Notes: generated by a model from the letters alone, not told the origin. Positions 5,801 through 37,216 are shown, counted from the stretch's first letter. The stretch: 58,175 bases of DNA from Candidatus Nealsonbacteria bacterium (GCA_030601865.1 JAUWAW010000003.1:1-58175); one strand, 5' to 3'. Translations and numbers: made by a program.

Positions 5801-5939
5801 AATAAGAACCTGCCTCGCTAACGCTCGTCAGAACCTTGATTCGTTAAGGTATAAATATATAGTCTTGAATTAAGAACCTGCCTCGCTAACGCTCGTCAGA
5901 ACCTTGATTCGTTAAGGAATAAATATATAGTCTTGAATT
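5801..5939 (+). repeat. R1 element, two tandem copies (5801-5871, 5872-5939)
   Basis: aagaacctgcctcgctaacgctcgtcagaaccttgattcgttaagg(t/a)ataaatatatagtcttgaatt occurs twice. The second copy ends directly at ATG 5940. Confidence 0.95.
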
Positions 5940-6434: not shown

Positions 6435-6475
6435 AATGTTTAAACTTCCACTTTAAACATTCTTCTTAAACTGCT

Positions 6476-7549: not shown

Positions 7550-7591
7550 AACCACCACTTTAAACACTCAGAGAGACAGGTAAATAAAGAA

Positions 7592-12102: not shown

Positions 12103-12170
12103 AAACCTGCCTCGCTAACGCTCCGCTAGAACCTTGATTCGCTAAGGTATAAATATATAACCTTGAATTA
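12103..12170 (+). repeat. R1 element, copy 3
   Basis: aaaacctgcctcgctaacgctccgctagaaccttgattcgctaaggtataaatatataaccttgaatta. Confidence 0.9.
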
Positions 12171-12222
12171 AGCTCTTTAAAAAAGTGGTGGGGGGTGTGG
12201 AAAACTCCCTAAAATCACCTCC

Positions 12223-14751: not shown

Positions 14752-14767
14752 TTTTTGTAATTATTAT

Positions 14768-14806
14768 CTGACATCGAATGTTGACATCGGATGTCAACAG
14801 ACATCT
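14768..14806. repeat. REP2 palindrome cluster (intergenic)
   Basis: ctgacatcgaatgttgacatcggatgtcaacagacatc. Core is TGTTGACATCGGATGTCAACA. Confidence 0.9.
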
Positions 14807-14825
14807 ACCGTCTTTTTGCTTTGAT

Positions 14826-14855
14826 TTGACATTGATTCTGGCTTTGTGGTAAAAT
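14826..14855 (+). promoter_or_regulatory. promoter candidate with extended -10
   Basis: TTGACA (14826-14831), 18-nt spacer, TGgTAAAAT (14847-14855). Confidence 0.35.
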
Positions 14856-15035
14856 AAAATTAAGTACTTTGACATAACCTCCATTTCTAACAAAGGAGGT
14901 GCAGACATAAGGATGAGGCAAAGAGGGCTTATATGGGACACTTGAAGAGGAAAGCCAAGGATTGGCGAGAATACCTTTTTAGATCTGAGAAACGGAAAAG
15001 AGAATCGCAGAAAAGACAAAAAAGGTATTTGAAAC

Positions 15036-15260
15036 AGGGGGGAGACCCCCGCCGCGTATCGAACTAGAGCTGAATAGTTTTGGAATAGTTCTTTGGAGCG
15101 CGGGGAAGCCCAGCTTCCTGGTTAGCTGGAGTGAATAAGTGGCAATCCGGTCAGGTGCCCGGGGAATGCCCTGCCACTGGCTCTGCCCCGGTTCCCTGCG
15201 CTCCCTCATTTACGGCGTATCCTACAAGGCGATGTCAATGACACCGCCTCTTGTTTTTTT
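15036..15260 (+). ncRNA. GC-rich structured region of unknown class ending in an intrinsic terminator, immediately upstream of clpB
   Basis: Local GC is clearly above the surroundings. Pairings: 15095-15105 with 15194-15204, hairpin 15110-15129, 15138-15144 with 15172-15178. Terminator aggcgatgtc-aat-gacaccgcct plus T7 at 15227-15260. Confidence 0.3.
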
Positions 15261-15287
15261 GTGGATTTGTGATATTGTATAGGCAAC

Positions 15288-17993
15288 ATGAACGGTGGTA
15301 ATTTTACACGCAAAGCTCAAGAAGCAATAATGATGGCTCAGTCCTTGGCACGGCAGGCCGGGCAGCAACAGATTGATGCCTTGCATTTACTCTCTGTCTT
15401 GCTTTTCCAGGAAGGGACAGTGGTTTTGAATTTGCTTCAGAAATTGGGCGTGGATATAGAAAATCTTAAACGGAAAGTAGCCGGGGCTTTGCATACCATT
15501 CCCACCGCGACTACTCCCCGAAGTTTTGGCCAGTTTTATTTAACCCAGGATATGGCCAAGGTGCTGGATGGCGCACGACAGGAGTCAATGAAGATGGGCG
15601 ATGAGTTTATTTCAGTGGAGCATCTGTTTTTGGCTTTACTCTCAAGCCAGACCAAAGCCAGAGAGGTCTTGGACAGGGTCTCCTTTTCCCAGGGAGGAGG
15701 AGTTTCTACTTTAGAAACAGGCAAACTTGATTACCAGACCTGTTTGAAAGTGATCTCTCAAATACGAGGAGGAGCCAGAATAACTGACCCTGAGCCAGAA
15801 TCAAAATATCAAGTGGTGCAGAAATATGCGCGCAATTTAACCTTGCTGGCTCGACAGAAGAAGTTAGACCCGGTTATTGGTAGAGAAGATGAAATTCGCC
15901 GCTTAATGCAGGTGCTCAACCGCAGAACAAAAAATAACCCGGTTTTAATTGGCGAGGCCGGCGTGGGCAAAACAGCCATTGTGGAGGGTTTGGCTCAAAA
16001 AATTGTCAAAGGTGATGTGCCTGAGTCCTTAAAGGAAAAAGAGGTTATTGGCTTAGATTTAGGCGCTTTAGTGGCCGGCACCAGATATCGGGGAGAGTTT
16101 GAAGATAGAATAAAGGCCTTCTTAAGAGAGATTCATCAGGCCGCGGGTAAATATGTTTTGTTTATTGACGAGCTGCACACTCTAGTGGGCGCTGGGGCGG
16201 CTGAGGGCGCCATTGATGCTTCCAATCTTTTAAAACCAGCTTTAGCTCGAGGCGAATTAAGAGCCATCGGAGCCACCACCTTAAAAGAATATCAAAAATA
16301 TGTGGAGAGAGACCCAGCTTTAGAAAGAAGATTTCAGCCCATTTATGTTAGCGAGCCCTCGGTTGAGGACACCATGGCCATTTTAAGGGGGATTAAAGAA
16401 AGGTACGAGGTTCATCATGGGGTGAGAATAAAAGATTCTGCCTTAAAAGCAGCTGCTGAATTAGCCAGCCGCTATATCACTGACAGATTTCTGCCTGATA
16501 AAGCCGTGGACTTGATGGATGAAGCCGCCTCGGCCCTAAGATTGGAAATTGAATCAGAACCAGCCCCTTTAGAAGAATTAAAGATGGAAATGCAAAAATT
16601 GGCAATTGAAAAAGAGGCCTTGAAAAAAGAAAATGAACCCCTTAATAAAAAGAGATTACTGGCGCTTAATCGTGCCTTAGCTGATGTTAAAGAAAAGGCC
16701 CAAACCCTGGAATTGAAATGGAAAACAGAAAAAGATTTGATTACCAAGATTAGAGAACTGAAAAAAGAAATTGACCAGCTTTCTTTGCAATCAGAAATTG
16801 CCCAAAGACAGGCCAACCTGCAAAAGGTGGCTGAGATTAAATATGGCCAGATTCCCTCTCTTTTAAAAGAGGTCAGGGAAACAGAGAAGAGGTTGGTTAA
16901 AATTCAGAAAAAGCACCAGATTTTAAAGGAAGAGGTGGGTGAGGAGGATGTGGCTCAGGTTGTTTCTCGCTGGACCGGCATTCCCGTCACCCGCTTGATA
17001 GAGGAAGAGGCCAAAAAATTAAAGAAAATGGAAAGAATTATCATGAAGCGGGTCATTGGCCAGAAAAAGGCCATTGTTGCTGTTTCCAATGCCATTCGCC
17101 GCAACCGGGCTGGCATCTCAGAGGAACAACGACCTATGGGCTCTTTCCTCTTTTTGGGTCCCACCGGTGTGGGCAAAACCGAGACCGCTCGGGCCGTGGC
17201 TGATTTTTTATTCAATGACGAAAATGCCCTGGTGCGGCTGGATATGTCAGAGTATATGGAGCGCCATACTGTTTCTAAGATTATTGGCTCTCCTCCCGGC
17301 TATGTTGGTTATGAGGAGGGAGGTCAACTGACCGAGAAGATGCGACGTCGGCCCTACAGCGTCATTTTACTGGATGAGATTGAAAAAGCCCATCCCGAAG
17401 TTTTTAATATTTTACTGCAAATTATGGAAGATGGGAGATTGACCGATGCCAAGGGCAGGACTGCCTCTTTTAAAAATAGCATTTTGATTATGACCTCTAA
17501 TATTGGCTCAGAATACATTGCTCAAATGGGTTCTTTGGGTTTTTTGGCCGAGAAAGAAGAAACAGCCACGCCCAAGAATTTAAAAGAAAAAGTGTTTGAG
17601 GAGCTGAAAAAGGAGTTTCGGCCAGAGTTTTTAAACAGAATTGATGAAACCATTATTTTTAACTATTTAGGCAAACCAGAGATTAGAAAAATTGTTGAGC
17701 TGGAATTGGCAAAGGTGGGTCAGCGCTTAAAGTCAAAAGAGATGACCATCAGGGTTCCTGAAAAGGCCAAAGAATTTTTGGCTGAAAAGGGCTTTGATAT
17801 CAATTTTGGGGCTCGGCCTTTGAAAAGGGTTATTCAGCGCTTAATTCTTGACCCTCTGGCTCTAAAAATCATTGCAGGCGATGTTAGACAAGGAGACAAT
17901 GTTATGATTGACCTTGAACAAGAGCAGATTATCCTTAGAACTCCCCGCGACATGCTCAGCCAACAAAAGCAACGCGAGCAAGTCACAGTTTAA
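15288..17993 (+). CDS. clpB: ATP-dependent chaperone ClpB
   Basis: 901 aa. Clp N-domain, two AAA+ modules ([16 protein letters not shown], Walker B LFIDELH / [10 protein letters not shown]) and a long coiled-coil middle domain. Confidence 0.95.
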
Positions 17994-18836: not shown

Positions 18837-18859
18837 TGTCCGAGAAGCCATCTCGGACA
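18837..18859. repeat. REP1 palindrome, upstream copy
   Basis: tgtccgagaagccatctcggaca (9-bp stem, 5-nt loop), 7 nt before ATG 18866. Confidence 0.9.
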
Positions 18860-18865
18860 GCTTTT

Positions 18866-19594
18866 ATGCCTATAAAACGCCCACAATTTGCTGACGGGGA
18901 AATTTACCATGTTATACTCAGAGGTATTGCCGGCCAGAAAACTTTTTTAGAAAAAAGGGATTATTTGAGATATCTTTTTAGTTTACACATATTTAATAAT
19001 AAAGGGAGGGTTATTAAGCCCTTTAGGCCTGTCCGAGATGGCTTCTCGGACAGATTATTAATTAGGGGGCCGGATTTGGAAAAGCCGAGAGAGTTATTGA
19101 TTGAGATTTTAGGGCTTTGTTTAATGCCCAATCATATTCATTTACTGGTTCGGCAGGTTGTTGAAAATGGTATTTCTTTGTTTTTTCAGAAAATGGGTGG
19201 TTATTCCAGTTATTTCAACAAAAAATATGAGCGGTTTGGCTCCTTGTTTCAGCGGCCGTTTAAGGCAGTGCTTATTAAAACTGACGACCAATTGCTCATT
19301 GCTATTACCTATATCCATATGAATCCAATTGATTTAATTGAGCCCAATTGGAAAATTAGAGGCATTGCCAATCCTCAAAAAGTTATGGAATTTTTAGAAT
19401 CGTATCTTTGGTCAAGCTATCCTTATTATTTGGGAAAAGAGAACTTTTCCTGGTTAATTGATTCTTTATTTTTAAAGAAAATTTTGAAGAGTCCTGAGGA
19501 TTTCCGAAATTTTGTTAAAGCGCGAGTTCTCTATAAGGCAAGATTAAATGACTTTTTAGGTGCGTTACAAGATTTTTCTTTGACTTTAGAATAA
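18866..19594 (+). CDS. REP-associated tyrosine transposase-like protein (IS200-like Y1/HUH family), RAYT1
   Basis: GEIYHVILRG, LMPNHIHLLV (HUH), GSLFQRPFK, TYIHMNPI (catalytic Tyr region). ATG 18866 is preferred over the TTG at 18836, which lies inside REP1. Confidence 0.8.
   Translation: MPIKRPQFADGEIYHVILRGIAGQKTFLEKRDYLRYLFSLHIFNNKGRVIKPFRPVRDGFSDRLLIRGPDLEKPRELLIEILGLCLMPNHIHLLVRQVVENGISLFFQKMGGYSSYFNKKYERFGSLFQRPFKAVLIKTDDQLLIAITYIHMNPIDLIEPNWKIRGIANPQKVMEFLESYLWSSYPYYLGKENFSWLIDSLFLKKILKSPEDFRNFVKARVLYKARLNDFLGALQDFSLTLE
19030..19052. repeat. REP1 palindrome, internal in-frame copy (inverted loop)
   Basis: tgtccgagatggcttctcggaca, which encodes PVRDGFSDR inside RAYT1. Confidence 0.9.
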
Positions 19595-19613
19595 AAAAGA
19601 ATGGTGTTCGAGA

Positions 19614-19636
19614 TGTCCAAGATGGCTTCTCGGACA
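19614..19636. repeat. REP1 palindrome, downstream copy (one stem mismatch)
   Basis: tgtccaagatggcttctcggaca, preceded by the partial copy tgttcgaga. Confidence 0.85.
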
Positions 19637-20268: not shown

Positions 20269-20285
20269 TCGCTGGGGGAATAGAC

Positions 20286-20364
20286 TGTTTAATCCTTCGG
20301 ATTAAACATGCTATTTTCGGCTTCAATATGCAATTTTCACGTGTTTAATCCGAAGGATTAAACA
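20286..20364. repeat. REPIN-like doublet: two 23-bp hairpins in inverted orientation
   Basis: tgtttaatccttcggattaaaca (20286-20308) and tgtttaatccgaaggattaaaca (20342-20364), separated by a 33-nt spacer. Confidence 0.9.
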
Positions 20365-20377
20365 CTTCATTTATTCT

Positions 20378-23300: not shown

Positions 23301-25030
23301 AGGCCAACCCAGCTGACGAATGGCTGGAGTTGTATAACAATGCCTCAACTGAAATTGACTTGAATAATTGGACCCTTACTTGGAGCCATGGGACAACTAC
23401 CCATTCCCTTACTTTCTCTACCTCCACTGGCGCGCTCACAACTACTATCCCGGCCGCGGGCTTTTACCTGCTGGAGCGCACTGATGACACCACTATCAGC
23501 GATATCTCAGCTGACCTCATCTATACCGGCGGCCTCCACAATGATGGCGAAAAATTAGAATTAAGAGATACTCAGGGTAATCTAATTGACCAAGTTGATT
23601 GTTCAAATGCCTGGTTCGCCGGAGAAAATAAAAAAGAAGGCAACAAATGGCTGCGCATCTCCATGGAAAGAATTAACTCCACCTTTACTGGCGCTACTTC
23701 CACTAATTGGGCCAGTAACAATCGCATTACTAAAAACGGCCGAGACGCCAGCAACGACCCCCTCAACGCCACGCCCAAAGCAGAAAACAGCGTCTCCAAA
23801 TCCCAAACCGAAATTTCCGGCCAAGCAACCTACCCCATCCTGACCTATCTGGGCAGTCCCTATATTGTCACTGGCACCTTAACTGTCCCTCAGGACAAAA
23901 CCCTGACCATTGAGCCGGGGGTAACCTTAAAATTTGATGCTTCGGTGCGTATGATAGTTCAAGGAAAATTAGAAGCAATTGGCAAGGAAGAGGAAGAAAA
24001 TAAAATTGTTTTTGTTGCCAATTCTGATTCTCCCTGGCCAAACTATTGGCAAGGCATTTACTTTCTTAACAGTGCCGGATCTAAATTAGAAAATGTAATT
24101 GTCAGATATGGAGGAAAAATTTATATACCCTTTTACGAACTCCCTAATTTTTGGGCTGGCCTCCAGGTTGAAAATAGTGAGATTTCAATTCAAAATTCCC
24201 TAATTGAAAATTGCCTTCCCGGAGGCCTCTGGCTAAATAACTCCACCAGCACAGTAGAAAATGTAGAATTTTCCAATATTAAAGATCAAGATTCGCCTTA
24301 TTTTCATAATACAGCTGCTCTCTGGATTCAAGGAGGAAAAGCTCTTATTAAAAATTCAATCTTCCGAGAAAATACAATTGGCCTTAAAATTAAGGGAGGG
24401 GCCTGTCCCCAAATTGAAAATAATATTTTTGAAGGAAATGAAACTCCAATCTATCTTCAAGGTGTTTCCTATCCAATTTTTTCAAGCAATCAAGCTCATA
24501 ATAATGACTTGAACGGAATTTTTGCTGATGCCAGCACCATAATTTCTGATATAGTTTGGTCCGCAGATTTGCCTTATATAATAAAGGACAAATCCATTGA
24601 AGCTGGAGCAACCCTGACCTTAAAGGCGGGAACCCAGCTTCAATTGAAAAATGGGGGACATTTGACAATTGATGGGAATTTGATAACCGAGGGAACCTCA
24701 ACCAAGCCAGTTTTAATTACCTCTCTTTCTGATAGCCCGTCAGCCCATTGGCAACGTTTAGCTTTTTATTCTTCAGGTTCTGTTTTAGATGGAGCTATAA
24801 TTAGATATGGTGGGGGAGGTTGTGATGCGGGTTATTGTTGGGGAGCGATTACTCAATCAAAAGATGTTGAAATTGAAATTAAAAATTCTATAATTGAAAA
24901 TAATACCTGGGGAATTTTTAGCAATGAAGCAAAATGTGAAAAAGTTTTTGAAAAAATTAAAATAGAAAATACTATTTTCAGGGAAAACAAATTCAATATT
25001 CGTCGGCCTTATGGAGAATGTTTTCCATAA
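20378..25030 (+). CDS. giant secreted protein: three lamin-tail domains, PKD domain, C-terminal right-handed beta-helix repeats
   Basis: Signal-like N-terminus. LTD signatures (NEIAWMG..EWIEL.N, ITEVQ..DFIELYN), PKD (FDFGD..H.F...Y.I.L.V.DDDG), many NosD/pectin-lyase-like repeats (I.NS.I..N), acidic/proline linkers. Confidence 0.8.
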   Translation: MKRAFLYFFGLIFLVVFLFFPQNSQGQELELAKDDTLDLLKATQQVLIDKWLDLTTSGSFDEPEEQAALFLIRNAIQKRQFSYFVKELPKEYLKALLKTAGSLLFAEKAITFILGEIEKKSVKEAVGLTTDWLLANEIRIGQGKLSYPFESYKGNWQEPPLHYLIVYQEVGADPVRGLGVEEKAQNAQTSNGAGTWAEVAIEFYSPELMEPPEPTGASILGIRRVPWEFAEWRAAGNEVLLPFIVRIKGRVLKDEAIGYQWQENRVEISFSEPVPYFPEEKDTWISKIPFLGSFYRNFKQRLVELKKIMEKLGRLGRWGTGSVVVPEMEPGEQDLAVLDMEKVKEVPEEETAPTVLLGPEAEGTGGPLPREEILARIQEELDDIAEGIDIINQEVRELTAEEDVGDVSLDSVSPDGSSVSISEELEEFVEQPLEEVGPAFAPDESAEALAEEEGATAGKQEFCQKIPGAQAIRNKVILNEIAWMGTEESYSNEWIELKNISGETVDLTGWQLFNKEQKIKIIFSRDNFLTGGFWLLERTDDETVPGKAADLIYTGALKNREEVLYLFDSACHLQDKVGALPDWPAGDNSSKRTMERRTDLTWQTSAEIGGTPKAENSSGYVAGGGGGGAPPPAEPEPPEEEPEEEPEEPQPVPEILITEVQIRDAFSSDHDFIELYNLATTTVDISGLQLKKKSSTGEECSVRVFPSGSQILSQSYFLWANSAYVSSSQISADLVNTTSSQTLAKNNSLALLNQDKSIIDAVAWGSSTDPFLEGLPFSQNPEHTQTLGRKWSTSTQTYIDTDNNAEDFELQEPTPGAENKPKTEGGGSGGEEEGEDEEPEPPEPPPENQAPTALFTFSPQNPFVGQETFFNAASSTDPDGQITAYFWDFGDNATTTTSQATTTHSFASSTPYLISLKVIDDDGAFSTPATTTITVSGDSGGEEEGEDEEPEPPEPPPETPTLSVVINEIAWMGTKANPADEWLELYNNASTEIDLNNWTLTWSHGTTTHSLTFSTSTGALTTTIPAAGFYLLERTDDTTISDISADLIYTGGLHNDGEKLELRDTQGNLIDQVDCSNAWFAGENKKEGNKWLRISMERINSTFTGATSTNWASNNRITKNGRDASNDPLNATPKAENSVSKSQTEISGQATYPILTYLGSPYIVTGTLTVPQDKTLTIEPGVTLKFDASVRMIVQGKLEAIGKEEEENKIVFVANSDSPWPNYWQGIYFLNSAGSKLENVIVRYGGKIYIPFYELPNFWAGLQVENSEISIQNSLIENCLPGGLWLNNSTSTVENVEFSNIKDQDSPYFHNTAALWIQGGKALIKNSIFRENTIGLKIKGGACPQIENNIFEGNETPIYLQGVSYPIFSSNQAHNNDLNGIFADASTIISDIVWSADLPYIIKDKSIEAGATLTLKAGTQLQLKNGGHLTIDGNLITEGTSTKPVLITSLSDSPSAHWQRLAFYSSGSVLDGAIIRYGGGGCDAGYCWGAITQSKDVEIEIKNSIIENNTWGIFSNEAKCEKVFEKIKIENTIFRENKFNIRRPYGECFP
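20896..20954. repeat. inverted-repeat element in-frame in the LTD protein
   Basis: Perfect 15-bp arms ccccgttagaggttt / aaacctctaacgggg with a 29-nt loop. It encodes DPVRGLGVEEKAQNAQTSNGA. Confidence 0.85.
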
Positions 25031-25048
25031 AATTTGCATTAAAAATCT

Positions 25049-25654
25049 ATGGACAAAAACTATCTCATCCAATTAACCAATAAACTTTATCGCTTGACCC
25101 TGCTTTTTCCCAAAAAAGAGCCCTTGCGCTACAAAATGCGCGAAATAGCCAACGAAATTTTAGCCGACATTGTAGCCGAGAAGGAGAATCTCCACCGTGG
25201 TAAAAAACCCACGATCGTAGGAATTTTACCACGGCTGGAAACTTTAGACAGTTTTTTTGAGGTGGCCAAGGCGCAGAACTGGGTCAAGGCAGAGGAAATC
25301 TTGAATCTTCAGCAGGAATATAGTAAGGTAAAACAAGAATATAGTAAGGGTAAAGAAAAGATTCACCTTGTTAGATCCCGCGAAAGGGAAATTCCGCCAG
25401 AACCAACAAGTAGTCTGTTGACATCGGATGTCAACAGAGATGTCAACAGACAACCACAGGCCAGCCTGAACGATCGCCACCGAACAATCCTTGACTTCTT
25501 AAAAGAAAACGGCCAGGCCCAGGTAGGACATTTGACAAAGGTTCTTTCCCAAGTAACCAAAAGAACCCTGAGAAGGGATTTTAAAGATTTATTAAACCAG
25601 GGCCTGATTGAGAGGATGGGCGATAAGAATGAAACCTATTACCGGTTAAAATGA
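25049..25654 (+). CDS. four-helix-bundle (23S rRNA IVS-protein-like) N-domain plus winged-HTH C-domain protein
   Basis: KLYRLT..FPKKEP.RYKMRE.ANEIL pattern. C-terminal RHRTILDFLKENGQAQVGHLTKVL..TKRTLRRDFKDL is a DeoR-like wHTH. The gene carries three repeat insertions. Confidence 0.55.
   Translation: MDKNYLIQLTNKLYRLTLLFPKKEPLRYKMREIANEILADIVAEKENLHRGKKPTIVGILPRLETLDSFFEVAKAQNWVKAEEILNLQQEYSKVKQEYSKGKEKIHLVRSREREIPPEPTSSLLTSDVNRDVNRQPQASLNDRHRTILDFLKENGQAQVGHLTKVLSQVTKRTLRRDFKDLLNQGLIERMGDKNETYYRLK
25195..25234. repeat. P2 palindromic element, in-frame
   Basis: ccgtggtaaaaaacccacgatcgtaggaattttaccacgg, which encodes RGKKPTIVGILPR. Confidence 0.85.
25415..25450. repeat. REP2 palindrome plus half-copy, in-frame
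   Basis: ctgttgacatcggatgtcaacag agatgtcaacagac, which encodes LLTSDVNRDVNR. Confidence 0.9.
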
Positions 25655-26160
25655 GAAATCCTAGGAAAAAATTTGCCAAAATTTACGATAAATATATTGA
25701 AAAAATATATCGTTTTATTTTTTTAAAGGTTAATTCCCCAGAAATAGCTGAGGATTTGTCTTCCGAGACCTTTTTGAGGGGGTGGAAAGCCTTTCAAAAC
25801 CCAAAAAAAATTAAAAATCCTCAGGCCTTTTTGTATAAAATTGCCAGAAACTTAGTTATTGACCATTACCGGGAAAAAGGCAAGGCCCAGATTATTTCAG
25901 CTGAATATGCTTCTATTATTGACCCATGCCAAGATTTAGCCGAAAAAGCTATGTTGACATCGGATGTCAACAGCATTAGACAGGCCTTGGTCAACGTAAA
26001 ACCCGATTACCAAGATATCATCATCTGGCGCTATTTAGATGAGATGTCTATTTCAGAAATAGCCCAAGCTTTAGATAGGACAGACGGCGCAACCCGTGTC
26101 CTACTTCATCGGGCAATGAAAGCCTTACGGACAACAATGGCAGGAGGTGAAGAAAATTGA
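25651..26160 (+). CDS. ECF-type sigma-70 family RNA polymerase sigma factor
   Basis: Region 2 (IYRFIFLKV....AEDL..ETFLR.W, FLYKIARNLVIDHYR) and region 4 (DIIIWRYLDEMSISEIAQALDRTDGATRVLLHRAMKALR). Confidence 0.85.
   Translation: MRNPRKKFAKIYDKYIEKIYRFIFLKVNSPEIAEDLSSETFLRGWKAFQNPKKIKNPQAFLYKIARNLVIDHYREKGKAQIISAEYASIIDPCQDLAEKAMLTSDVNSIRQALVNVKPDYQDIIIWRYLDEMSISEIAQALDRTDGATRVLLHRAMKALRTTMAGGEEN
25952..25973. repeat. REP2 palindrome in-frame in the sigma2-sigma4 linker
   Basis: tgttgacatcggatgtcaacag, which encodes MLTSDVNS. Confidence 0.9.
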
Positions 26161-26391
26161 AACTGAAAAGATGGCTAGGGAAAATTTTCTTGTGTCTCAT
26201 ATTGAAGATCCTAAGCATGGCCGTGGAGGAAACAAAACGTCCATTTTGTGGTAAAAAACATGCTATGGGAGCATTTGTTCCTTTTAGGTGTCCTAAATAG
26301 TCAAGGAAATAGGATCAATCCTATTTTCCCCAAAAAGCGCTAAGCTTTCAAGGGCCGTTTACCCCACAGCCCCTTTCTTTTTGCTTTACGT

Positions 26392-26414
26392 CTGTTGACA
26401 TCGGATGTCAACAG
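26392..26414. repeat. REP2 palindrome, upstream of RAYT2
   Basis: ctgttgacatcggatgtcaacag. Confidence 0.95.
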
Positions 26415-26450
26415 CGAGTATAATGTAAAATAGGTAAAATAGACAGACGT

Positions 26451-27185
26451 ATGTATCGAGAATTTGCCATAGGAGAATATTATCATGTGTATAACCGCGG
26501 CAATCGCAAGGAGATAATATTCTATAACGAAAAAGATATGTGGCGTTTTTTACAAACTCTCCGTTTTTTTAATGACACGCGTTCTTCTCTTAATGTCCTC
26601 CGTCAACTGTTGACATCCGATGTCAACAGACCTGTCCATAGGACAAGTTCGGTATTTGAGTTGGGCTGGCCGCCTAAGTGGCCAGAACAAGAGCCCTTGG
26701 TCATAATTTTGTGCTATTGTTTAGTTCCCAACCATTTCCATTTGTTATTAAAAGAAATTCGGGAAGGAGGCATCTCCAAATTTATGCAAAAAATTGGTAT
26801 TGGTTTTTCAAAATATTCCAATATAAAATATGACAATGTGGGCAGCCTTTTCCAAGGACCTTATCAAGTCAAATTAATCGAAGAGCAGAGATATTTAGAA
26901 TATTTAATGGTCTATATCCAAGTCATCAATGTCTTAGAGTTATTCCCCGGAGGCCTTGAGGCAGCCCTAAAAGACCCTAAAAAAGGCATGGTTTTTGTGG
27001 ATAATTATATTTTCTCCAGCCACCCTGATTATGCTGGGTTGCGAAACTCTCTAATTGTTGGCAAAGACATTTTAGGGAAAATATTCCTCACCTCAGCCCA
27101 TTACAATCAATTCGTCCGCCAAACCCTCTTAGGTAAAAGAACCCAAGACATCACCCAATTTTTAGGTGATTTAACCTTAGAATAG
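26451..27185 (+). CDS. RAYT-like IS200-family Y1/HUH protein, RAYT2 (divergent Tyr motif)
   Basis: GEYYHVYNRG, LVPNHFHLLL (HUH), GSLFQGPY, VYIQVINV (Tyr kept, H.NP lost). It ends in LTLE like RAYT1. Confidence 0.7.
   Translation: MYREFAIGEYYHVYNRGNRKEIIFYNEKDMWRFLQTLRFFNDTRSSLNVLRQLLTSDVNRPVHRTSSVFELGWPPKWPEQEPLVIILCYCLVPNHFHLLLKEIREGGISKFMQKIGIGFSKYSNIKYDNVGSLFQGPYQVKLIEEQRYLEYLMVYIQVINVLELFPGGLEAALKDPKKGMVFVDNYIFSSHPDYAGLRNSLIVGKDILGKIFLTSAHYNQFVRQTLLGKRTQDITQFLGDLTLE
26607..26629. repeat. REP2 palindrome, internal in-frame copy in RAYT2
   Basis: ctgttgacatccgatgtcaacag encodes QLLTSDVNR. It is followed at 26633-26645 by the REP1-like mini-hairpin tgtccataggaca. Confidence 0.9.
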
Positions 27186-27219
27186 CTGTTGACATCGGAT
27201 GTCAACATCGGATGTTGAC
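27186..27219. repeat. REP2 palindrome plus overlapping second copy, immediately after the RAYT2 stop
   Basis: ctgttgacatcggatgtcaacatcggatgttgac. Confidence 0.9.
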
Positions 27220-27307
27220 CGGTTTAGGAAAAGTGTAACGCAAGGGCGGTTTCTGCGTCATAATAATATAAGGGGTATCTCATAGCCGATTATGGTGACC
27301 CGATACT

Positions 27308-28057
27308 ATGACCGAAAAAGAGGTGATTACTAAAATTCAAGAGCTAAAGCAAATTACACCCAGAGAGGACTGGGTTGTTTTGACTAAGAACCAGATTTTA
27401 ATCCAGGAAATGGGTCGTGATAAAAAACCTACGATCGTAGGTTTTTTATCACGGTTTAATTTTCGCTGGGTTTTGCTTCCGGCTTTTTCTTTTTGTCTAA
27501 TTTTAGGCATTTTTGCCCTGTCGCAAAGTTCTTTGCCCGGCGACTCGCTTTATCCCCTTAAAAAAATGACTGAAAAAAGCCGGGTCCTTTTTATTTCCCA
27601 GGAACAAAAACCAAAACTCAATCTGGAACTGGCCAATAAGCGACTGCAAGATTTGACCAAGATTGTCCAGAATAATGATGTCAAAAAGCTGGCCCCAGCC
27701 ATTAAGGAATTTCAGGCCAATATTTCTGAGGCAGTCAAAAATTTGAGCAAAATAAAGGCCACTAGCTCTGACCCGGTTATGATTAAGAAAATTGTGGAAG
27801 AGACCAAAAAATTGGAGGAAAATAAACAAAAAGTAGAGGCCTTGGGCGTGAAGGTGGGCGATACTGAAGAATTAGACAATGCCTTATCTCAGTGGAGGGC
27901 TCGCCTGGTGGAAAGCGAAATTAAAGAAATGGAAGGTAAAGAACTATCTGAAAATCAGCAGCAAATTTTGGCTGAAATAAAACAAGATTTTGAGAATGGA
28001 GATTATTCTTCTGCTTTGGAAAAGATTTTATTATTGAGTTATCCACAGGACAAATAA
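27308..28057 (+). CDS. putative anti-sigma factor (single TM, DUF5667-like extracytoplasmic helical domain)
   Basis: Short cytoplasmic N-terminus, a TM helix (WVLLPAFSFCLILGIFAL), then PGDSLYPLKK..E and a long helical K/E-rich domain. The context is downstream of the ECF sigma. Confidence 0.5.
   Translation: MTEKEVITKIQELKQITPREDWVVLTKNQILIQEMGRDKKPTIVGFLSRFNFRWVLLPAFSFCLILGIFALSQSSLPGDSLYPLKKMTEKSRVLFISQEQKPKLNLELANKRLQDLTKIVQNNDVKKLAPAIKEFQANISEAVKNLSKIKATSSDPVMIKKIVEETKKLEENKQKVEALGVKVGDTEELDNALSQWRARLVESEIKEMEGKELSENQQQILAEIKQDFENGDYSSALEKILLLSYPQDK
27416..27453. repeat. P2 palindromic element, perfect 38-bp palindrome, in-frame
   Basis: cgtgataaaaaacctacga|tcgtaggttttttatcacg, which encodes RDKKPTIVGFLSR. 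Confidence 0.95.
28037..28048 (+). promoter_or_regulatory. AGTTATCCACAG motif
   Basis: Exact 12-mer in the last codons of 27308..28057, upstream of TATAAT (28069-28074) and R1 copy 4. Confidence 0.45.
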
Positions 28058-28071
28058 GCACAATTAGGTAT

Positions 28072-28143
28072 AATAAGAACATGCCTCGCTAACGCTCGGC
28101 ATAACCTTGATTCGCTAAGGTATAAATATATATTCTTGAATTA
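28072..28143 (+). repeat. R1 element, copy 4
   Basis: aataagaacatgcctcgctaacgctcggcataaccttgattcgctaaggtataaatatatattcttgaatta, ending directly at ATG 28144 of a 29-codon uORF. Confidence 0.9.
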
Positions 28144-28241
28144 ATGGAAAGTCGCGATTCTCGTGGCCCTTACGTAAGGTCGCGAACACAAGGTCGACGC
28201 GACGAAAAAAATAATAACACAATTAAAGATTGATTAATTAC

Positions 28242-31200
28242 ATGTCTAATTTGAAAAGAAAGATTGTTGCAGTTGTTACAGTTTTGACTGTGGCCGGTTT
28301 TGTTGCTGGACCTAGTATGGCTCAAGCAACTACCATAGAAGACCTTTTAGCTCAGATTGCTGAATATCAGGCCCTATTGGATGAATTAACAGCCCAGGTA
28401 GCTGAACTCCAAGGCGAGACCGCTACTCCGGCTATTTCCGGTTGTCTCATTACTGAATTTACCCGCAATCTCCAACAGGGTATGTCTGGCGACGATGTCA
28501 ACTGCCTGCAGATTGTTTTGAACTCTGATTCAGAAACCCAGTTGGCTGCCTCTGGCGTTGGTTCTCCTGGTTCAGAAACCAGCTATTTTGGTCCTTTGAC
28601 CAAGGCAGCGGTTATTGTTTTCCAGGAACTCTACGCTGACGAGGTTTTGGCCTCTTGGGGTTTGACCTCAGGCACCGGTTTTGTTGGTTCCACCACCAGA
28701 GCCAAGTTGAATTCTCTTTTGACAGCAGCTCCAGAGGTAGTGGAATGTGAGACCGACGCTGATTGCGCCAGCGGCCAAGTTTGCGAAGACAGCGTCTGCG
28801 TGGCCGCTCCCACCGTAGAAGAAGCCGAGGGCTTTACCGTAGCTTTAGCCGTGGACACCCCGGCCTTAGGAGCTGTGGCTGTGGGAGCTTACAATGTCGT
28901 CTTTACCAAGTTAAAGTTCCTTTCTGACACTGATTGCACCATCACGGCCATTGCGGTTAAAAGAAATGGCGTTTCCGATGATAATGATGTGACCGATGTC
29001 AGACTCTTTGAAGACAGCACTCAGTTGGGCACGGCTCAGGCCTTAAATACCATTACCCATAAAGCCACCTTTTCAGGACTTTCTTGGGCTTTAACCGCCA
29101 ATATACCCCAATACCTGACCATCAAGGCCAGTATTAATTCCAGTTCTACTGAAGCTCAGGCCGGCAATACCATTAATTTTGGCATTGTGGCAGCTGGAGA
29201 TGTGGTTACCACTGAAGGCCTGACCATAGAAGGAGTGCCAGTTTACGGCAATGCCAAGACCATTGCCGGTGTTTCAGTTGGCGTATTGGATGTGGATGGA
29301 AAGTACTGGACACAGTCCTCTGATACCTCAATTACCGGCGATGTCATTTCTGGAGCCACTGATCAGAATGTGGGTACTTTCGCCTTTACTGCTTCTTCAG
29401 CTGAGGGCTTTGACGTAACCGAGGTTATTCTCACGGAAGTGGGGACTTCGGTTGGCACTGATATTTCCAATATCACCTTGAAGTATTTAGGCGAGACCAT
29501 TGCCACGGTCGCTGAATTAGATGCTGATGATGAGGCCGTGTTCCAAGGCGACCCTCTCTTTACTCTTAGAGCCGGTGTGGCCAAAGACATTGATGTTTAC
29601 GTTGACATTGGTTCGGGCGTTATTTCAGAAAGAACCGTCAAGTTTGAGGTTACTGAGGCGCCTGATATTACTGCCTTTGGTCAAAATACCGGAGGAGCCG
29701 TGGTTATTACCTGGAACAGTGGTAATACCTTTATTATCCAACGTAGCAAGGAAATGACCATTAAGCAGGGGACTTTGAGGGTGGCTTTAGACACAGCTAC
29801 CAATCCTTCTGACCAGTACTATACCATTGGCGCCACTCAGGAAGTTATCACCAGCTTTAAGTTTAGTGCCGGAAGCAGAGAAGGAGTTAAGATTACCAAA
29901 CTGAAAGTGACCGAAGGCGGCACCATTTCTGATACTGAATATCAGAGTGTTCAGCTTTATATTGACGGCGCTGAGACCTCAACCGGTCATGTGGGCAGTA
30001 TTTCCAGTGGACTCATTACTTTTACTGATTCCGATGGCTTATTCACTGTGCCCAAATCAGCTAATACAGTGGTTACTGTCAAAGCCGACATTACCACCGC
30101 TGCTGATGGCGGAGATAAGATCAAAATGTATATTTCTGCCATCACCAACATTACCATGAAGGGCGCTGAGTCCGATGCTAAAATCTACTCCGATTCTAGC
30201 CATGTTGTCCTTTCCGGTGTTGGTTCTAGCGATGTCTCCGAGCACGAGATTAAGGGCCAGGGTAATTTAACTGTTTCCGCAGCTCCGGACAACCCCGCGG
30301 GCATGAGCATTACCTTGGGAGATGACGACTTGACTGTCTTCAAATTCAGATTAACTGCTGGATATGAAGATATTTTGGTTTCTTCCATCAAAGCATGGAT
30401 CTTTAACGATAGTTCTATCAGTTTGACTGAGGATGACAAAGAAGCGACCAGCACGGGCGATATTGCCAATGTTAAGCTTTATGATGGCGCAACTTTGCTC
30501 AATGAACAAAGCAGCCCTTCAGAAGGATATGTTATTTTCAGCACCAACTTTACTGTGACCAAGGATATTCCCAAGACCCTGAGTGTGGTCTGTGATGTTC
30601 CGGTGGGCAGTACTTTGCAGTATTTGGGAATGAGCGTGGGAGATGACACCGGCGGCGCCGACGCGGATACCGACATAACCAGTTATGGCGTCAGTTCGGC
30701 CAAGAACATTACGGAGACCGGAGGCGCAGTCAGTAATGTCTTCACCTTAGCTGCTCCTGCCTTAGCCGTTACCGCTGCTGCATCCCCACCGGGCCAATAC
30801 AAAGTGACCAATACTTCAGGTGCTTGGTTAGGAAGATTACAGTTAGCTGGTACCAATGAAGCCATTAAGGTGACCCGGGTGATTATTACCGCGGCCACCA
30901 ACACTAACTTGACGACTGATGACAGTGATGCTTCAACCAACTTTTCCAATGTTTACCTCAAGGTAGGCGGCGTGGATGTTGCCGGACCCAAACCCTTTGT
31001 CAATGCCGGAGGTTCAGAAAACAAAGATATAGCCACCTTTAGCGGCATTGAGGGCTTAGAAATCCCCAAAGACCAGACCGTGTCTTTAGACATCTATGCT
31101 GATATCGTGGGCACTGATGCTGGTCCCTGGTACTTTGGCCATGCTTCCGCTACTGACATTGTTGGTTCAGGTTTATCTTCCAATACCGGAGTGAATTCTA

Positions 31201-33997: not shown

Positions 33998-34023
33998 CCC
34001 TTATCACCCTTATCAACCCTTAT
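33997..34023 (+). repeat. three phased ACCCTTAT repeats overlapping the start of 34022..35800
   Basis: Copies at 33997, 34006 and 34016. The last one contains ATG 34022. Confidence 0.85.
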
Positions 34024-35800
34024 GAAAACCAAAACAAACATTATTCTCATGCTAGCCTTGTTCCTGGCACTTCCTTTGGTAGTCAGTGCCGATTACGGTG
34101 GCCAGCAAACCTCTTTTTTTGTTGACTCTGATTACGATTTATTGGGCAGAGAAAAGTTGACCGCCACCCTTATCAGGATCAGTCCCCATCTTTATTTTTA
34201 CCTTGATAATAACTGGTGGTCAGCGGTCAGCGCAGCCAAGCAAAGCGAAATTAAAACAGCCCTTCAGAATTTAGAAGAGGAATTTGAGAAAACAATTTAT
34301 CCAATTTTAACCGCAGCTTTTGGAACAGAATGGAGACCAGGCATTGATAAAGACGTCCACCTAATCATTTTAATTCATCCCATTGAGGAACAGGCCGGCG
34401 GCTATATCAGCACTGGAGATGAGTATTCTAAATTGCAGGTGCCCAATTCCAATCAGAGAGAAATGATTTATCTCAATTCAAAATACATTACCTCTCCTTT
34501 GGCCAAATCTTTTTTAGCCCATGAATTCACCCATTTAATTACTTTCAATCAAAAAGAAGTAAAAAGAGGAGTAACCGAAGAAATTTGGCTCAATGAGGGA
34601 AGAGCCGAATATGCCCCCACTTTGCTGGGATACGACAGTCCTTATATTGGCAGCAATCTGCAAACAAGAGTGAGAGATTTTTTACAAAATCCGCAGGACT
34701 CTTTAACTGAATGGAGAAATGACAAAGCCGACTACGGGGTCTTAAATCTATTTATCCAGTATTTAGTTGATTACTACGGAATTGAAATCTTAGTTGATTC
34801 TCTTCATTCAAAAAAGATAGGCATTCCCTCTCTTAATGAGGCCTTAGCCAAAAATGGCTATGACCAGGACTTTTCCCAAATTTTCACTGACTGGACCATA
34901 GCTGTCCTCTTAAATGATTGTTCTATTAAACACCCGATGTTAAGCGAGCAAAGCGAGACAACATCGGGTGTTGAATCTCCTTATTGCTACCTAAACCCAA
35001 ATTTAAAAAATGTGCGGGTTTCCCCTTCACTTAATTTTTTGCCTTTTGTCAAAAAGACGACTCTGGCAGTAACGGCCACCAGCAAAAATTGGGCCGCTAA
35101 TTGGTACAAATTTATTGGGGGCCAAGGCGATTTAAAACTGGAGTTTATTGGCTATCCTGATATTACTTTCAAAATCCCCTATTTGACCCAGGACTTAGCC
35201 GGAGAATATTCTCTTGACTTTTTTGAACTTGATGAACATCAACAGGGTCAGATTCTGATTCCTGATTTTGGGCAAAAGATTACTTCTTTGGTCATTATTC
35301 CCTCAATTCAGAGTAAAATGTCTGGCTTTGATGCTGATGAGGACTCTTATTCTTTTTTTTGGTCTGTCTCCAGCGAGGAGGAATCAAATACCCCACCTAA
35401 TGAAGAAGAAGAACCAGCTGAAGACATCCAGTCCCTCCTTGAAAAGATTAGTTTCTTAGAAAAACAATTGACTCTTTTAAGAGCCCAACTCAAAACCCAG
35501 CTGGCCCCCACACCTCTGGAGGTGTGGGGGCTGGCCGGACCCCAGGCCTTAGAATACAATTTGCAGTATGAGGATAGGGGAGAGGAAATCAAACTTTTAC
35601 AGACCTGGTTGGCTAAAGACCCCTTTGTTTATCCTGAGGGCTTGGTCACCGGCTATTTTGGCCCCCTGACCAAGGCAGCTGTCATCCGTTTTCAAGAAAG
35701 ATTTCCCGAGGAAGTGCTCAGCCCCTGGGGCCTGACCCAGGGCACTGGCTTTGTCGGCCCCACCACCCGCACCAAACTGAATGAATTATATACTTCTTAA
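34022..35800 (+). CDS. secreted HEXXH zinc-metallopeptidase-like protein with coiled coil and C-terminal peptidoglycan-binding domain
   Basis: Signal peptide, LAHEFTHLI plus downstream NEGRAEY (gluzincin pattern), C-terminal GYFGPLTKAAVIRFQE..GTGFVGPTTRTKLN nearly matching the PG-binding module of 28242..32798. Confidence 0.6.
   Translation: MKTKTNIILMLALFLALPLVVSADYGGQQTSFFVDSDYDLLGREKLTATLIRISPHLYFYLDNNWWSAVSAAKQSEIKTALQNLEEEFEKTIYPILTAAFGTEWRPGIDKDVHLIILIHPIEEQAGGYISTGDEYSKLQVPNSNQREMIYLNSKYITSPLAKSFLAHEFTHLITFNQKEVKRGVTEEIWLNEGRAEYAPTLLGYDSPYIGSNLQTRVRDFLQNPQDSLTEWRNDKADYGVLNLFIQYLVDYYGIEILVDSLHSKKIGIPSLNEALAKNGYDQDFSQIFTDWTIAVLLNDCSIKHPMLSEQSETTSGVESPYCYLNPNLKNVRVSPSLNFLPFVKKTTLAVTATSKNWAANWYKFIGGQGDLKLEFIGYPDITFKIPYLTQDLAGEYSLDFFELDEHQQGQILIPDFGQKITSLVIIPSIQSKMSGFDADEDSYSFFWSVSSEEESNTPPNEEEEPAEDIQSLLEKISFLEKQLTLLRAQLKTQLAPTPLEVWGLAGPQALEYNLQYEDRGEEIKLLQTWLAKDPFVYPEGLVTGYFGPLTKAAVIRFQERFPEEVLSPWGLTQGTGFVGPTTRTKLNELYTS
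34929..34972. repeat. hairpin element in-frame in the metallopeptidase-like gene
   Basis: Perfect 13-bp arms aacacccgatgtt / aacatcgggtgtt, loop aagcgagcaaagcgagac. It encodes KHPMLSEQSETTSGV. Confidence 0.9.
35505..35530. repeat. 26-bp palindrome in-frame (CCCCCACACC family)
   Basis: cccccacacctc tg gaggtgtggggg, which encodes PTPLEVWG. Confidence 0.9.
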
Positions 35801-35968: not shown

Positions 35969-37216
35969 TTAATCTCTCGGGTTAAACACTTTTTTAGTTG
36001 CTTCTACCATTTTTTGCAAGGTGAATTGTTGTTCCAGTTTTTTTCTGGCTAAACTAGCCATTTGCCGGGCTTTATCTGGATGTCCCAGGACAGAGGCAAT
36101 TTTTTCAGCCAATTTTGGGCTGTTTTTTACTTCCACCAAGAGACCTTCTTTGGTATTTTCAATTATTTCTGGCACTGCCCCCACTTTGGTGGCTACAATG
36201 GGCACCTCAGCGGCCATGGCCTCTAAAATAACCCAAGGGAACCCTTCTTTCAAAGAAGGCAAAACAAAAACATCAAAGGCCTTTAAGTATTTGTAGGCAT
36301 TTGGAATACGGCCAACTAAAAAAACCGTATTTTCAAGGTTATATTTTTTTATTAGTGATTCTAACTTTGTTCGCAAGCGCCCCTCCCCAATGATTATTAT
36401 CTTGAAACCTGAATTTAAAATATGAGTTGCCTCGATTAAATATTTTAGACCCTTAGTTCTATAAAAGTTAGCCACAGTACCCACAATTGGTGACATCCGA
36501 TGTTGACATCCGATGTTGACATCGGATGTCAACAGACTAAATAAGTACTCTCTGGCTTTTTCTTTTAGCAAGAACTGCAATTTATTCACGTCAACCCCAT
36601 TATAGATTTTGACAATTTCGGGCAATCTACTATTGTCATTCTGAGCCGAAGGCGAAGAATCTCGTTCTTCCACGGGACCCTTCACTTTGTTCAGGGCGGC
36701 ACCTTCGGTGCCGATTTTATATTTTATGGCTAATTGCCGGTCAATTTCGCAATTAACAATGATTTTATCCTTAAAGCGGGCAGTCCATTTCTCCAGCCAA
36801 ATAATAATTTTGTTTTGCCAAGCCGGCCTGGGGTCGCGAAAAGCCCAACCACCAATACGATAAATAACCCGGCTTTTTTTATAGAGACGACCGGCAATAG
36901 AGCCTAAAATGCCCGCCGTGGTTGAATTCAAAAACAAAACATCCGGCTTTTCTTTTTTCAATAATTTGTAAATCTCCCTTATGGAAAGAAAAACACTAAT
37001 CGGTCCTGGTATCCTTTTGAGATATTTTAAGTTTTGAGTTTTAAGTTGTGGTTTTGAGTTTTGCGTTTTGAGTTTTGCGCTTAATTCTCCGTCTTTTTCC
37101 CCAGCCGCCACCAAAACTTCATAGCCTTCATTGGCAAGATAAAGCGAGGTATCAAAAATATATCTCTGCGCCCCGCCAAATTCCGATTGGGTAACGATAA
37201 AAAGAATTTTTGTCAT
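35969..37216 (-). CDS. GT4-family glycosyltransferase interrupted in-frame by three repeat elements
   Basis: N-terminal FGGAQRY and C-terminal EGFPWVILEAMAAEVPIVAT.VGA.PEII (GT4 E-x7-E region). Extra segments lie at 36491-36535, 36633-36713 and 37031-37078. Confidence 0.75.
   Translation of the reverse strand: MTKILFIVTQSEFGGAQRYIFDTSLYLANEGYEVLVAAGEKDGELSAKLKTQNSKPQLKTQNLKYLKRIPGPISVFLSIREIYKLLKKEKPDVLFLNSTTAGILGSIAGRLYKKSRVIYRIGGWAFRDPRPAWQNKIIIWLEKWTARFKDKIIVNCEIDRQLAIKYKIGTEGAALNKVKGPVEERDSSPSAQNDNSRLPEIVKIYNGVDVNKLQFLLKEKAREYLFSLLTSDVNIGCQHRMSPIVGTVANFYRTKGLKYLIEATHILNSGFKIIIIGEGRLRTKLESLIKKYNLENTVFLVGRIPNAYKYLKAFDVFVLPSLKEGFPWVILEAMAAEVPIVATKVGAVPEIIENTKEGLLVEVKNSPKLAEKIASVLGHPDKARQMASLARKKLEQQFTLQKMVEATKKVFNPRD
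36491..36535. repeat. REP2 cluster (about 2.5 copies) in-frame in the glycosyltransferase
   Basis: tgacatccgatgttgacatccgatgttgacatcggatgtcaacag. The minus-strand frame reads LLTSDVNIGCQHRMSP. Confidence 0.9.
36633..36713. repeat. composite hairpin element in-frame in the glycosyltransferase
   Basis: gtcattctgagccgaaggcgaagaatctc ... cccttcactttgttcaggg, plus the perfect hairpin cggcacc-ttc-ggtgccg (36697-36713). Confidence 0.7.
37031..37078. repeat. three copies of gttttgagtttt(gc) in-frame in the glycosyltransferase
   Basis: Copies at 37031-37042, 37051-37064 and 37065-37078, which encode KTQNSKPQLKTQNLK. Confidence 0.9.

Follow-up and report, generated by a model that had tools for sequence, protein, structure and literature searches.

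A probable REPtron-like unit in Candidatus Nealsonbacteria: a Y1 HUH gene with one hairpin repeat upstream of, in frame within, and directly after its coding sequence

Here we describe a stretch of 58,175 nucleotides from Candidatus Nealsonbacteria bacterium, a tiny uncultured member of the Patescibacteria (GCA_030601865.1 JAUWAW010000003.1:1-58175), hereafter the window, in which a gene for a Y1 HUH protein, RAYT2, is accompanied by copies of a short hairpin repeat, REP2; the names refer to repetitive extragenic palindromic (REP) sequences and REP-associated tyrosine transposases (RAYTs). RAYT2 (26451..27185, plus strand) encodes a 244-aa TnpA-REP-like protein with its HUH histidines at H95 and H97 and its tyrosine at Y155, and lies between the gene for an extracytoplasmic function (ECF) sigma factor (25651..26160, plus strand) and that for a DUF5667 membrane protein, the likely anti-sigma partner (27308..28057, plus strand). 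REP2 is a 23-base repeat, CTGTTGACATCGGATGTCAACAG, found at seven sites in the window (starts at 14778, 25415, 25951, 26392, 26607, 27186, and 36513; 23-mers with at most one mismatch on the better strand), with 0 expected from 100 shuffles. Folded as single-stranded DNA (ssDNA), it adopts a hairpin with a stem of 10 bp and a loop of 3 nt (-9.1 to -9.4 kcal/mol, z about -6), and its stem foot reads CTGTTG (GTTG), which departs from the 5' GT[AG]G tetranucleotide of canonical REPs.

Three of the seven sites belong to the RAYT2 open reading frame (ORF), and the 23-mer matches bear out the upstream, internal in-frame, and stop-abutting copies that an earlier note on this DNA had described. The upstream copy (26392..26414; no strand is assigned to REP2 copies) is an exact match 37 nt before the RAYT2 ATG and forms the left boundary of the conserved unit. 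The internal copy (26607..26629) differs solely at its centre, TCC for TCG, which gives Ser either way, and encodes residues 53-60, LLTSDVNR, with L53-N59 reading LLTSDVN, in a loop between helix A and strand 2. The downstream copy (27186..27219) abuts the RAYT2 stop and, with an extra half-site, amounts to 1.5 copies.

The four further copies lie away from the gene: (i) within the ECF sigma gene (25951..25973), (ii) in the variable linker of a DeoR-type helix-turn-helix (HTH) ORF (25049-25654), as REP2 plus a duplicated half-site, LLTSDVNRDVNR (25415..25450), (iii) in a family 4 glycosyltransferase (GT4) gene on the minus strand (35969-37216), as REP2 plus two extra 13-nt half-sites (36491..36535), and (iv) in intergenic DNA, as a 23-mer match with a partial half-site (14768..14806). 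Partial half-sites with a period of 12-13 nt are found at 14768, 25438, 27209, and 36491-36512, and such half-site duplications recur at several REP2 copies, including those in the loops of orthologous genes. In the single 58-kb contig analysed here, seven copies were counted, four of them intragenic. Five of the seven copies fall within 1.8 kb of the RAYT2 gene and other draft genomes hold about 1-7 exact or near-exact copies, such that the description of the repeat as dispersed was overstated. All four intragenic copies, including that of RAYT2, use the LLTSDVN frame; one of the three REP2 reading frames contains TGA, and therefore only two are tolerable within a gene.

RAYT2 displays the features of the Y1 HUH superfamily, namely a profile score above the cut-off, an HUH motif with a single tyrosine on the following helix, and a TnpA fold. 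Pfam Y1_Tnp (PF01797) matches RAYT2 (23.7 bits) and its paralogue in the window, RAYT1 (28.3 bits), both as marginal passes over a cut-off of 23 and both spanning solely the HUH-to-tyrosine half of the protein; most RAYT2 homologues carry PF01797 in precomputed annotation. An AlphaFold model based on a 130-sequence alignment that includes the RAYT1 clade reached a predicted local distance difference test (pLDDT) score of 88.5, an earlier run with 30 close homologues (pLDDT 59.5, HUH region mis-folded) having been discarded. In this alignment N41, H95, H97, N124, G131, and Y155 are invariant, and in the model Y155 is located within helix 146-162. The best Foldseek match to the model is 4er8_A (E=6e-5, probability 1.00), which is E. 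coli TnpA-REP bound to a REP hairpin, followed by the TnpA proteins of ISDra2 and IS608. A search of the PDB with the single RAYT2 sequence returned nothing relevant, and profile searches of the PDB reached ISDra2 TnpA at E ~0.3 (profile A1) and E=0.009 (profile A2). The Pfam and fold matches, along with an identity of 34% between RAYT2 and RAYT1, support the proposal that this is a RAYT-like HUH gene with a palindrome family distinct from that of RAYT1.

In total, 1201 RAYT2 homologues were found, and over 1,000 proteins with identities of 50-76% make up the RAYT2 clade; every one of them comes from metagenomes of Patescibacteria type, and those that carry a name are called just "transposase". 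Across this clade the tyrosine-motif signature YIQVINVLELFPGG is at least 90% conserved, as is VYIQVINVLELFPGG. The tyrosine motif, which had been regarded as degenerated, is thus intact: Y155 is invariant, and the clade-conserved form YIQVINV stands where RAYT/TnpA-REP proteins have Y-x3-NP. Judged by sequence, RAYT2 is typical of its well-conserved clade, which has a tyrosine-motif variant of its own. RAYT2 has no Y-x3-Q and possesses a conserved C-terminal extension. Between the FFNDSHSSxNILR and SVFExGWP blocks of the protein alignment lies a segment that varies widely in length and sequence; it contains the residues encoded by REP2, and the model renders it as a low-confidence loop (pLDDT 61-70) between helix A and the HUH-carrying strand pair.

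REP2 is neither confined to the window nor an assembly artefact, given that 6 genome contigs and 33 metagenome stretches contain exact copies. The 53 exact sites in the collected DNA are divided between 17 inside ORFs of at least 110 aa, where the two open frames are used 10 and 7 times, and 36 outside; presence/absence differences of REP2 copies, which the earlier note had proposed to look for, do exist between relatives. A relaxed 16-base pattern, TTGACATCNGATGTCAA, searched in 596 Gb, produced mostly unrelated or chance single matches (Streptococcus, Microcystis, and others), and its matches were used solely for Patescibacteria genomes with several copies. In one Patescibacteria metagenome-assembled genome (L003, JAHIMV010000083.1, 3549-5649), three REP2 copies (3549, 3632, and 4533) stand directly upstream of a different RAYT-like gene, which has its own palindrome, CTTAGACACCGAGTGTCTAAG, at 4713, 4853, 4938, and 5173 (internal), placing two REP families at one locus.

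Orthologues of RAYT2 from five other assemblies (L090, L094, L099, L104, and L177) carry REP2 or a centre variant at all three places. The REP core is conserved among these orthologues and the neighbouring loop sequence is hypervariable; in L099, a close relative of L090, 2-3 changes break the REP2 stem. Conservation upstream of the gene starts exactly at the hairpin, and a longer element end, sought beyond the upstream REP2 by comparison of the orthologues, yielded no conserved sequence outside it. The relative orientation of the three copies is not conserved. In L090, L094, and L099 the orthologues adjoin a homologue of the window gene 34022-35800, and this different context indicates that the unit has moved on evolutionary time-scales.

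A comparable layout is seen across the wider gene family, which was surveyed through 80 homologue loci from one-genome-per-species contigs. In 63 of these loci the gene could be parsed, and for each gene the best loop hairpin was checked for recurrence nearby, a copy being defined by at most 2 mismatches. A loop hairpin with a stem of at least 8 bp, 151-225 nt after the start, was found in 31 of the 63 genes, and in 24 genes the loop hairpin has another copy in the locus. Copies are located 26-100 nt before the start codon in 22 genes, at or just past the stop in 20, and on both sides of the gene in 18, while a control region of the same length past the HUH motif contained 9 hairpins, 0 of which had a second copy. 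The palindromes are genome-specific, related gene clades have related palindromes (e.g. L039/L051/L063/L081), and outside the gene ends few palindrome copies are present within +/-4 kb. The upstream, in-loop, and after-stop arrangement is family-wide. With regard to the idea that the hairpin position predates the paralogues RAYT1 and RAYT2, a hairpin at this position is indeed old or recurrent throughout the family.

The copies within other genes show how REP2 is accommodated in coding sequence. In the DeoR-HTH ORF the copy occupies a linker of varying length among relatives, and in the GT4 gene it precedes the conserved IGxVANFY strand. The GT4 orthologue of Nealsonbacteria locus L004 has a single REP2 at the same site, from which it follows that the GT4 copy is old and vertically inherited. 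In the sigma gene, REP2 encodes MLTSDVNS and takes the place of native codons at equal length: the peptide aligns gap-free to ILNSDLDT, LVKSDIDT, FLRSDLEQ, and similar peptides in 8 relatives, whose native DNA at this site is just 10-15/24 identical to REP2. The sigma copy is a same-length replacement and not an insertion. The comparison points to the overwriting of a look-alike sequence in the sigma gene, which may have occurred by short-patch conversion or by cut-and-replace rather than by simple insertion. A sigma orthologue from another metagenome (L105) has the same REP2 copy. That the sigma peptide is a decayed ancient REP2 in all relatives was considered and rejected on the grounds of its helix-cap pattern, which we take to be normal at that position of ECF sigma factors in RpoE-type sequences.

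Comparison with relatives also clarifies how the cassette came to its present position. The ECF sigma gene encodes Sigma70_r2 and r4_2 domains (TIGR02937, 89 bits), and the DUF5667 gene (PF18915, E=1e-12) directly follows the sigma gene in relatives. Eight relatives, identified via the anti-sigma gene, have one gene order in common: large surface protein, HTH, ECF sigma, DUF5667, and large protein. In six of the eight, the sigma gene overlaps the DUF5667 gene or is separated from it by 40-100 nt, and the spacer of L124 measures 180 nt. A ninth relative, L095, found via REP2, has the two genes ~100 nt apart. In the window this distance is 1,147 nt and, in view of the short spacers of the relatives, the cassette is an insertion into the spacer, in agreement with the view that it separates an ECF sigma gene from its likely anti-sigma gene. 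The L095 spacer contains solely a solo REP2, whose TGT-TGA provides the sigma stop codon and to which the downstream REP2 of the window is orthologous; window positions 27186-27307 align to this spacer with a score of 66 (shuffle maximum 36). The L095 solo REP2 is either the empty site targeted by the cassette or the scar of cassette loss.

An ECF-type promoter motif, TGTAAC-N16-CGTCA, precedes the anti-sigma gene (27234..27260, plus strand; unique in the window, 0.02 expected), and GTAA(C/T)-N16-CGTCA is conserved in the spacers of L095, L121, L122, L124, L125, and L127. This suggests that the anti-sigma gene has its own ECF-dependent promoter and does not depend on read-through from the sigma gene; such a promoter, immediately ahead of the DUF5667 gene, would account for the tolerance of an insertion on its upstream side. 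The spacer of another relative, L120, holds an unrelated 270-aa ORF (2642-3454) that has no Pfam match and, by eye, an HNH-like DH...N...N stretch near its C-terminus. The sigma/anti-sigma spacer seems to receive selfish genes repeatedly.

The earlier note had pointed out that each REP2 arm carries the -35 hexamer TTGACA. The hexamer is present in each arm, but a promoter-like context is found at one copy only, since the copy at 26392 is the only REP2 in the window with a -10 box downstream. Here the -35 in the left REP2 arm contributes to a predicted sigma-70-like promoter, TTGACA-N18-TATAAT (26395..26424, plus strand), which is the sole 12/12 match in 25000-28300. TTGACA-N17/18-(T/G)A(T/A)AAT recurs in 4/5 orthologues (L094, L090, L099, and L177), and in other family members the upstream hairpin lies just ahead of a -10-like box near the ATG. 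The upstream REP overlaps the predicted promoter of RAYT2 itself, from which we infer a possible regulatory consequence.

The window contains a paralogous unit, REP1-RAYT1-REP1 (18837..19636, plus strand), with REP1 at 18837-18859, 19030-19052 (internal), and 19614-19636. RAYT1 most likely extends from an ATG at 18866 to 19594, and its layout is that of RAYT2 with a different palindrome, of which the foot is TGTCC with no GT[AG]G. RAYT1 retains the classical YIHMNP, in keeping with Y-x3-NP. A mini-hairpin at 26633, tgtccataggaca, had been described as REP1-like (26633-26645); it exists, but with -2.9 kcal/mol, equalled by 25/200 shuffles, its fold is not beyond chance, and its use as a sign of shared RAYT1/RAYT2 ancestry was dropped. 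Mini-palindromes of the form TGTCC-loop-GGACA occur at 23884-23897, 26633-26645, and 36081-36092, three besides the three REP1 copies and six in total, with 0.33 expected. They share just the 5-bp foot with REP1, the enrichment is mild, and they may be collapsed REP1 remnants or chance.

Several other repeats were noted in the window. A third palindrome family, (G)ATAAAAAACCTACGATCGTAGGTTTTTTAT(C), is located at 25196-25234 and 27416-27454, with a degenerate copy at 26248-26281; it folds at -10.9 kcal/mol as ssDNA and lies in frame (KKPTIVG) in the DeoR-HTH and anti-sigma ORFs, in segments that are absent from the 8 relatives. No HUH gene for this palindrome is visible in the window. A perfect 91-nt inverted repeat (161-251 / 1700-1790) surrounds a large serine recombinase ORF (147-1823; Resolvase, Recombinase, and Zn-ribbon domains) and ends 3 nt into a tRNA gene (1788-1870, minus strand), with a second tRNA at 1883-1971; this element could be integrated, invertible, or a contig-end assembly artefact. 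An 85-nt repeat, of the form ...CCTGCCTCGCTAACGCTCG...CCTTGATTCG(T/C)TAAGGTATAAATATATA...TTGAATTA, is present four times (5789-5873, 5857-5941, 12087-12171, and 28060-28144), each time just 5' of a gene start and once before a 1,522-aa protein at 28230, and looks like a shared promoter or leader module. A hairpin family, TGTTTAAAC...GTTTAAACA, directly follows stops at 6432-6462, 7539-7569, and 20279-20371, the last of which holds two inverted copies; on sequence, these hairpins may be terminator-like or a further REP type. Lastly, a 480-nt gap (14810-15287) without a convincing ORF is G+C-rich and structured-looking at ~15040-15260, and this stretch is preceded by TTGACA-N18-TAAAAT (14826-14855). 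Rfam matches in the window were limited to two tRNAs; the REP sites and 14750-15300 gave none, even at E<=1 for the G+C-rich gap.

We consider it probable that RAYT2 and REP2 constitute a REPtron-like unit, that is, the gene of a Y1 HUH ssDNA endonuclease/transposase together with its cognate hairpin. Given that the upstream, in-loop, and after-stop layout recurs across the family, the system is a variant of the known REP/RAYT repeat systems and not a new kind of element; as in those systems, the gene is flanked on both sides by a hairpin repeat that is also found elsewhere. By analogy with E. coli TnpA-REP, RAYT2 would bind and cut REP2 hairpins on ssDNA, thereby seeding or refreshing copies, which would persist within genes solely in loops or linkers and where read in one of the two frames free of stops. 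The copy within RAYT2 would reside in a disordered surface loop that tolerates it, and its identity with the flanking copies would be maintained through repeated REP-directed insertion or short-patch conversion. Both the length-neutral overwriting of sigma codons and the recurring half-site duplications could stem from this process, and the upstream copy, lying over the -35 box of RAYT2, would permit autoregulation.

It is important to note that a number of observations weigh against this interpretation: (i) the case for cleavage and mobilisation of REP2 by RAYT2 is argued from the E. coli TnpA-REP analogy, (ii) REP2 is without the canonical 5' GT[AG]G tag, (iii) copy number in the other draft genomes is low, (iv) within the window, no REP1 copies were found away from RAYT1, (v) about half of the family genes, including whole sub-clades such as the HVVKRGARG type, are without a loop hairpin, (vi) REP2 at orthologous sites (GT4 in L004 and sigma in L105) speaks for long vertical persistence over frequent movement, and (vii) NCBIfam REP_Tyr_transpos (NF047646) scores the two paralogues at 18.6 and 35.0 bits, far under its cut-off of 80.

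The alternative that survives best, which we nonetheless regard as unlikely, is that the in-gene REP is a selected cis-element, for example a feedback site at which RAYT2 binds its gene or mRNA, or a protected master copy that serves to regenerate the flanking and dispersed REPs; such an arrangement would tie the specificity of the enzyme to its repeat. A selected element would account for the shared location of the loop hairpin, 151-225 nt past the start codon, in 31 of 63 divergent genes, yet roughly half of the family, including the HVVKRGARG-type sub-clades, does without one. Selection would likewise fit the agreement of the loop hairpin with flanking copies to within 2 mismatches in 24 genes despite genome-specific palindromes, and the conservation of the REP core in RAYT2 orthologues beside a hypervariable loop; the comparison of L090 with L099, however, where 2-3 stem-breaking changes in L099 suggest tolerated decay, argues the other way. 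The upstream copy overlaps the predicted promoter in 5/6 RAYT2 orthologues, but the orientation of the three copies is not conserved, and Quentin et al. (2018, PMC6006769) regard analogous in-gene REPs as neutral, inserted in a peripheral loop. An extended form of the same idea, in which the in-gene hairpin is a maintained part of the system (protected master copy and/or feedback site) that locks enzyme to repeat, and REPs propagate for the most part by templated overwriting of look-alike sequences, as with the native codons replaced at equal length in the sigma gene, and less by simple insertion, is likewise offered only tentatively, and we would sooner doubt it than rely on it.

A REPtron-like unit is also to be weighed against an autonomous insertion sequence (IS) of the IS200/IS605 type, in which the hairpins would be subterminal ends and the scattered REP2 copies footprints or degraded ends. 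In favour of an IS, the fold of RAYT2 also matches IS608 and ISDra2 TnpA, the hairpins are found mostly at gene ends with few others within +/-4 kb, the gene occurs in different contexts in different genomes, and upstream conservation begins exactly at the hairpin. No near-identical copies of the gene were seen, however, the paralogues being 34% identical, and the proteins, at ~240 aa with a conserved C-terminal extension, have no Y-x3-Q. The same palindrome is found at both ends and in the interior, and solitary REP2 copies, some of them expanded, lie in genes and spacers without a RAYT2 gene. Excision of IS200/IS605 elements is precise and would leave no solo hairpin behind. We view an autonomous IS as improbable, more so than a selected in-gene element. 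That the palindromes are not mobile DNA but serve a dimeric DNA-binding protein, such as the neighbouring HTH or sigma protein, as operators or promoters is very improbable indeed: a perfect 23-bp inverted repeat with TTGACA is operator-like, one copy forms a consensus promoter, and five copies surround the HTH-sigma-RAYT2 genes, but four copies are in frame within coding sequence, a -10 box accompanies one copy only, the palindrome co-varies with the HUH gene and not with HTH or sigma across dozens of genomes, and relatives with the same HTH-sigma-anti-sigma operon have no palindromes.

The most useful lead is the family-wide co-variation of in-loop and flanking hairpins. Genome-specific palindromes in the same loop and at both ends of the gene amount to dozens of natural enzyme/hairpin pairs, which can be used to study hairpin recognition by Y1 enzymes and the means by which REPs stay uniform, and the small size of the system, with three copies at the gene and a handful elsewhere, makes the relation between enzyme and repeat easy to read. 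These findings also give context to a clade of more than 1,000 Patescibacteria proteins so far annotated merely as "transposase". The overwriting of sigma codons and the REP2 at the orthologous GT4 site in two genomes indicate that repeats shape proteins in reduced genomes. On the practical side, such palindromes will give rise to spurious antisense ORFs, and possibly to assembly breaks, in metagenome bins of the Candidate Phyla Radiation (CPR).

To our knowledge, nearly all work on REP/RAYT systems has dealt with Proteobacteria and Cyanobacteria, and a literature search found no paper on such systems in Patescibacteria (CPR). The systems with which RAYT2 and REP2 can be compared differ in how much they share with them. 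In the IS200/IS605 family (IS608, ISDra2), the catalytic fold and the presence of subterminal hairpins beside the gene are alike; their TnpA proteins are ~130-150 aa in length with Y-x3-Q, and the elements are multi-copy with distinct left and right ends and no internal hairpin, whereas RAYT2 has 244 aa and no Y-x3-Q, has no near-identical copy in the window, and is bounded by the same palindrome at both ends. In-frame intragenic palindromes are known from GTAG/CGTC REPs and from Rickettsia palindromic elements (RPE) (Di Nocera et al. 2013, PMC3733652). As with REP2, these are short palindromes in frame in functional genes, where they add or replace loop peptides. REP2 has no sequence relation to RPE, of which RPE-1 is longer, and differs in having a cognate HUH gene and in one length-neutral codon replacement.

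Among RAYT classes, RAYT1 resembles, by eye, subclass 2.1 / RAYT group 1 (TIRYT) in its NH[IYF]H, FQ, and Y[IV]H[LM]NP motifs, its length of ~240 aa, and its C-terminal extension. Group 1 and group 4 RAYTs have only low-abundance flanking repeats (Bertels et al. 2017), and the flanking repeats are of low abundance here too. Subclass 2.1 is reported to be without REP-like hairpins (Quentin et al. 2018, PMC6006769), while the hairpins described here are found within the gene as well as on either side of it. For subclass 2.4 / RAYT group 4 of Cyanobacteria and Bacteroidetes, REPs lying in frame within tnpA-REP genes are already on record and are interpreted as neutral, the insertion being in a peripheral loop (Quentin et al. 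2018, PMC6006769). RAYT2 shares with subclass 2.4 a cognate REP within the transposase gene that leaves the frame intact, its position in a peripheral loop, and additional flanking copies. It differs from subclass 2.4 in that its internal REP, at residues 53-60, lies upstream of HuH (H95/H97) and thus at a different position in the protein, FQ (FQG) replaces WQ, YIQVINV is found and no YIxNNP, and the host phylum differs; a three-copy layout with fixed distances is not described for that subclass.

The closest counterpart by structure is the E. coli TnpA-REP/REPtron (4ER8; Quentin subclass 2.2), which has the same Y1 HUH fold, is the best structural match, and likewise consists of a gene bracketed by cognate hairpin repeats that are also found elsewhere. 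Compared to E. coli TnpA-REP, RAYT2 has ~80 additional residues; its C-terminal extension is helical, a long variable loop precedes the HUH motif, and YIQVINV stands in place of Y-x3-NP. The repeat of RAYT2 is without the GT[AG]G tag, a property shared by subclasses 2.6 and 3 (Quentin et al. 2018, PMC6006769). E. coli REPs number in the hundreds, whereas here there are tens of copies at most, many of them intragenic. The present case is set apart from these systems by the internal hairpin upstream of HuH, the three-copy layout with fixed distances, a foot without GT[AG]G, low copy number, the variant tyrosine motif of the RAYT2 clade, and the same-length replacement of codons by one copy of the repeat.

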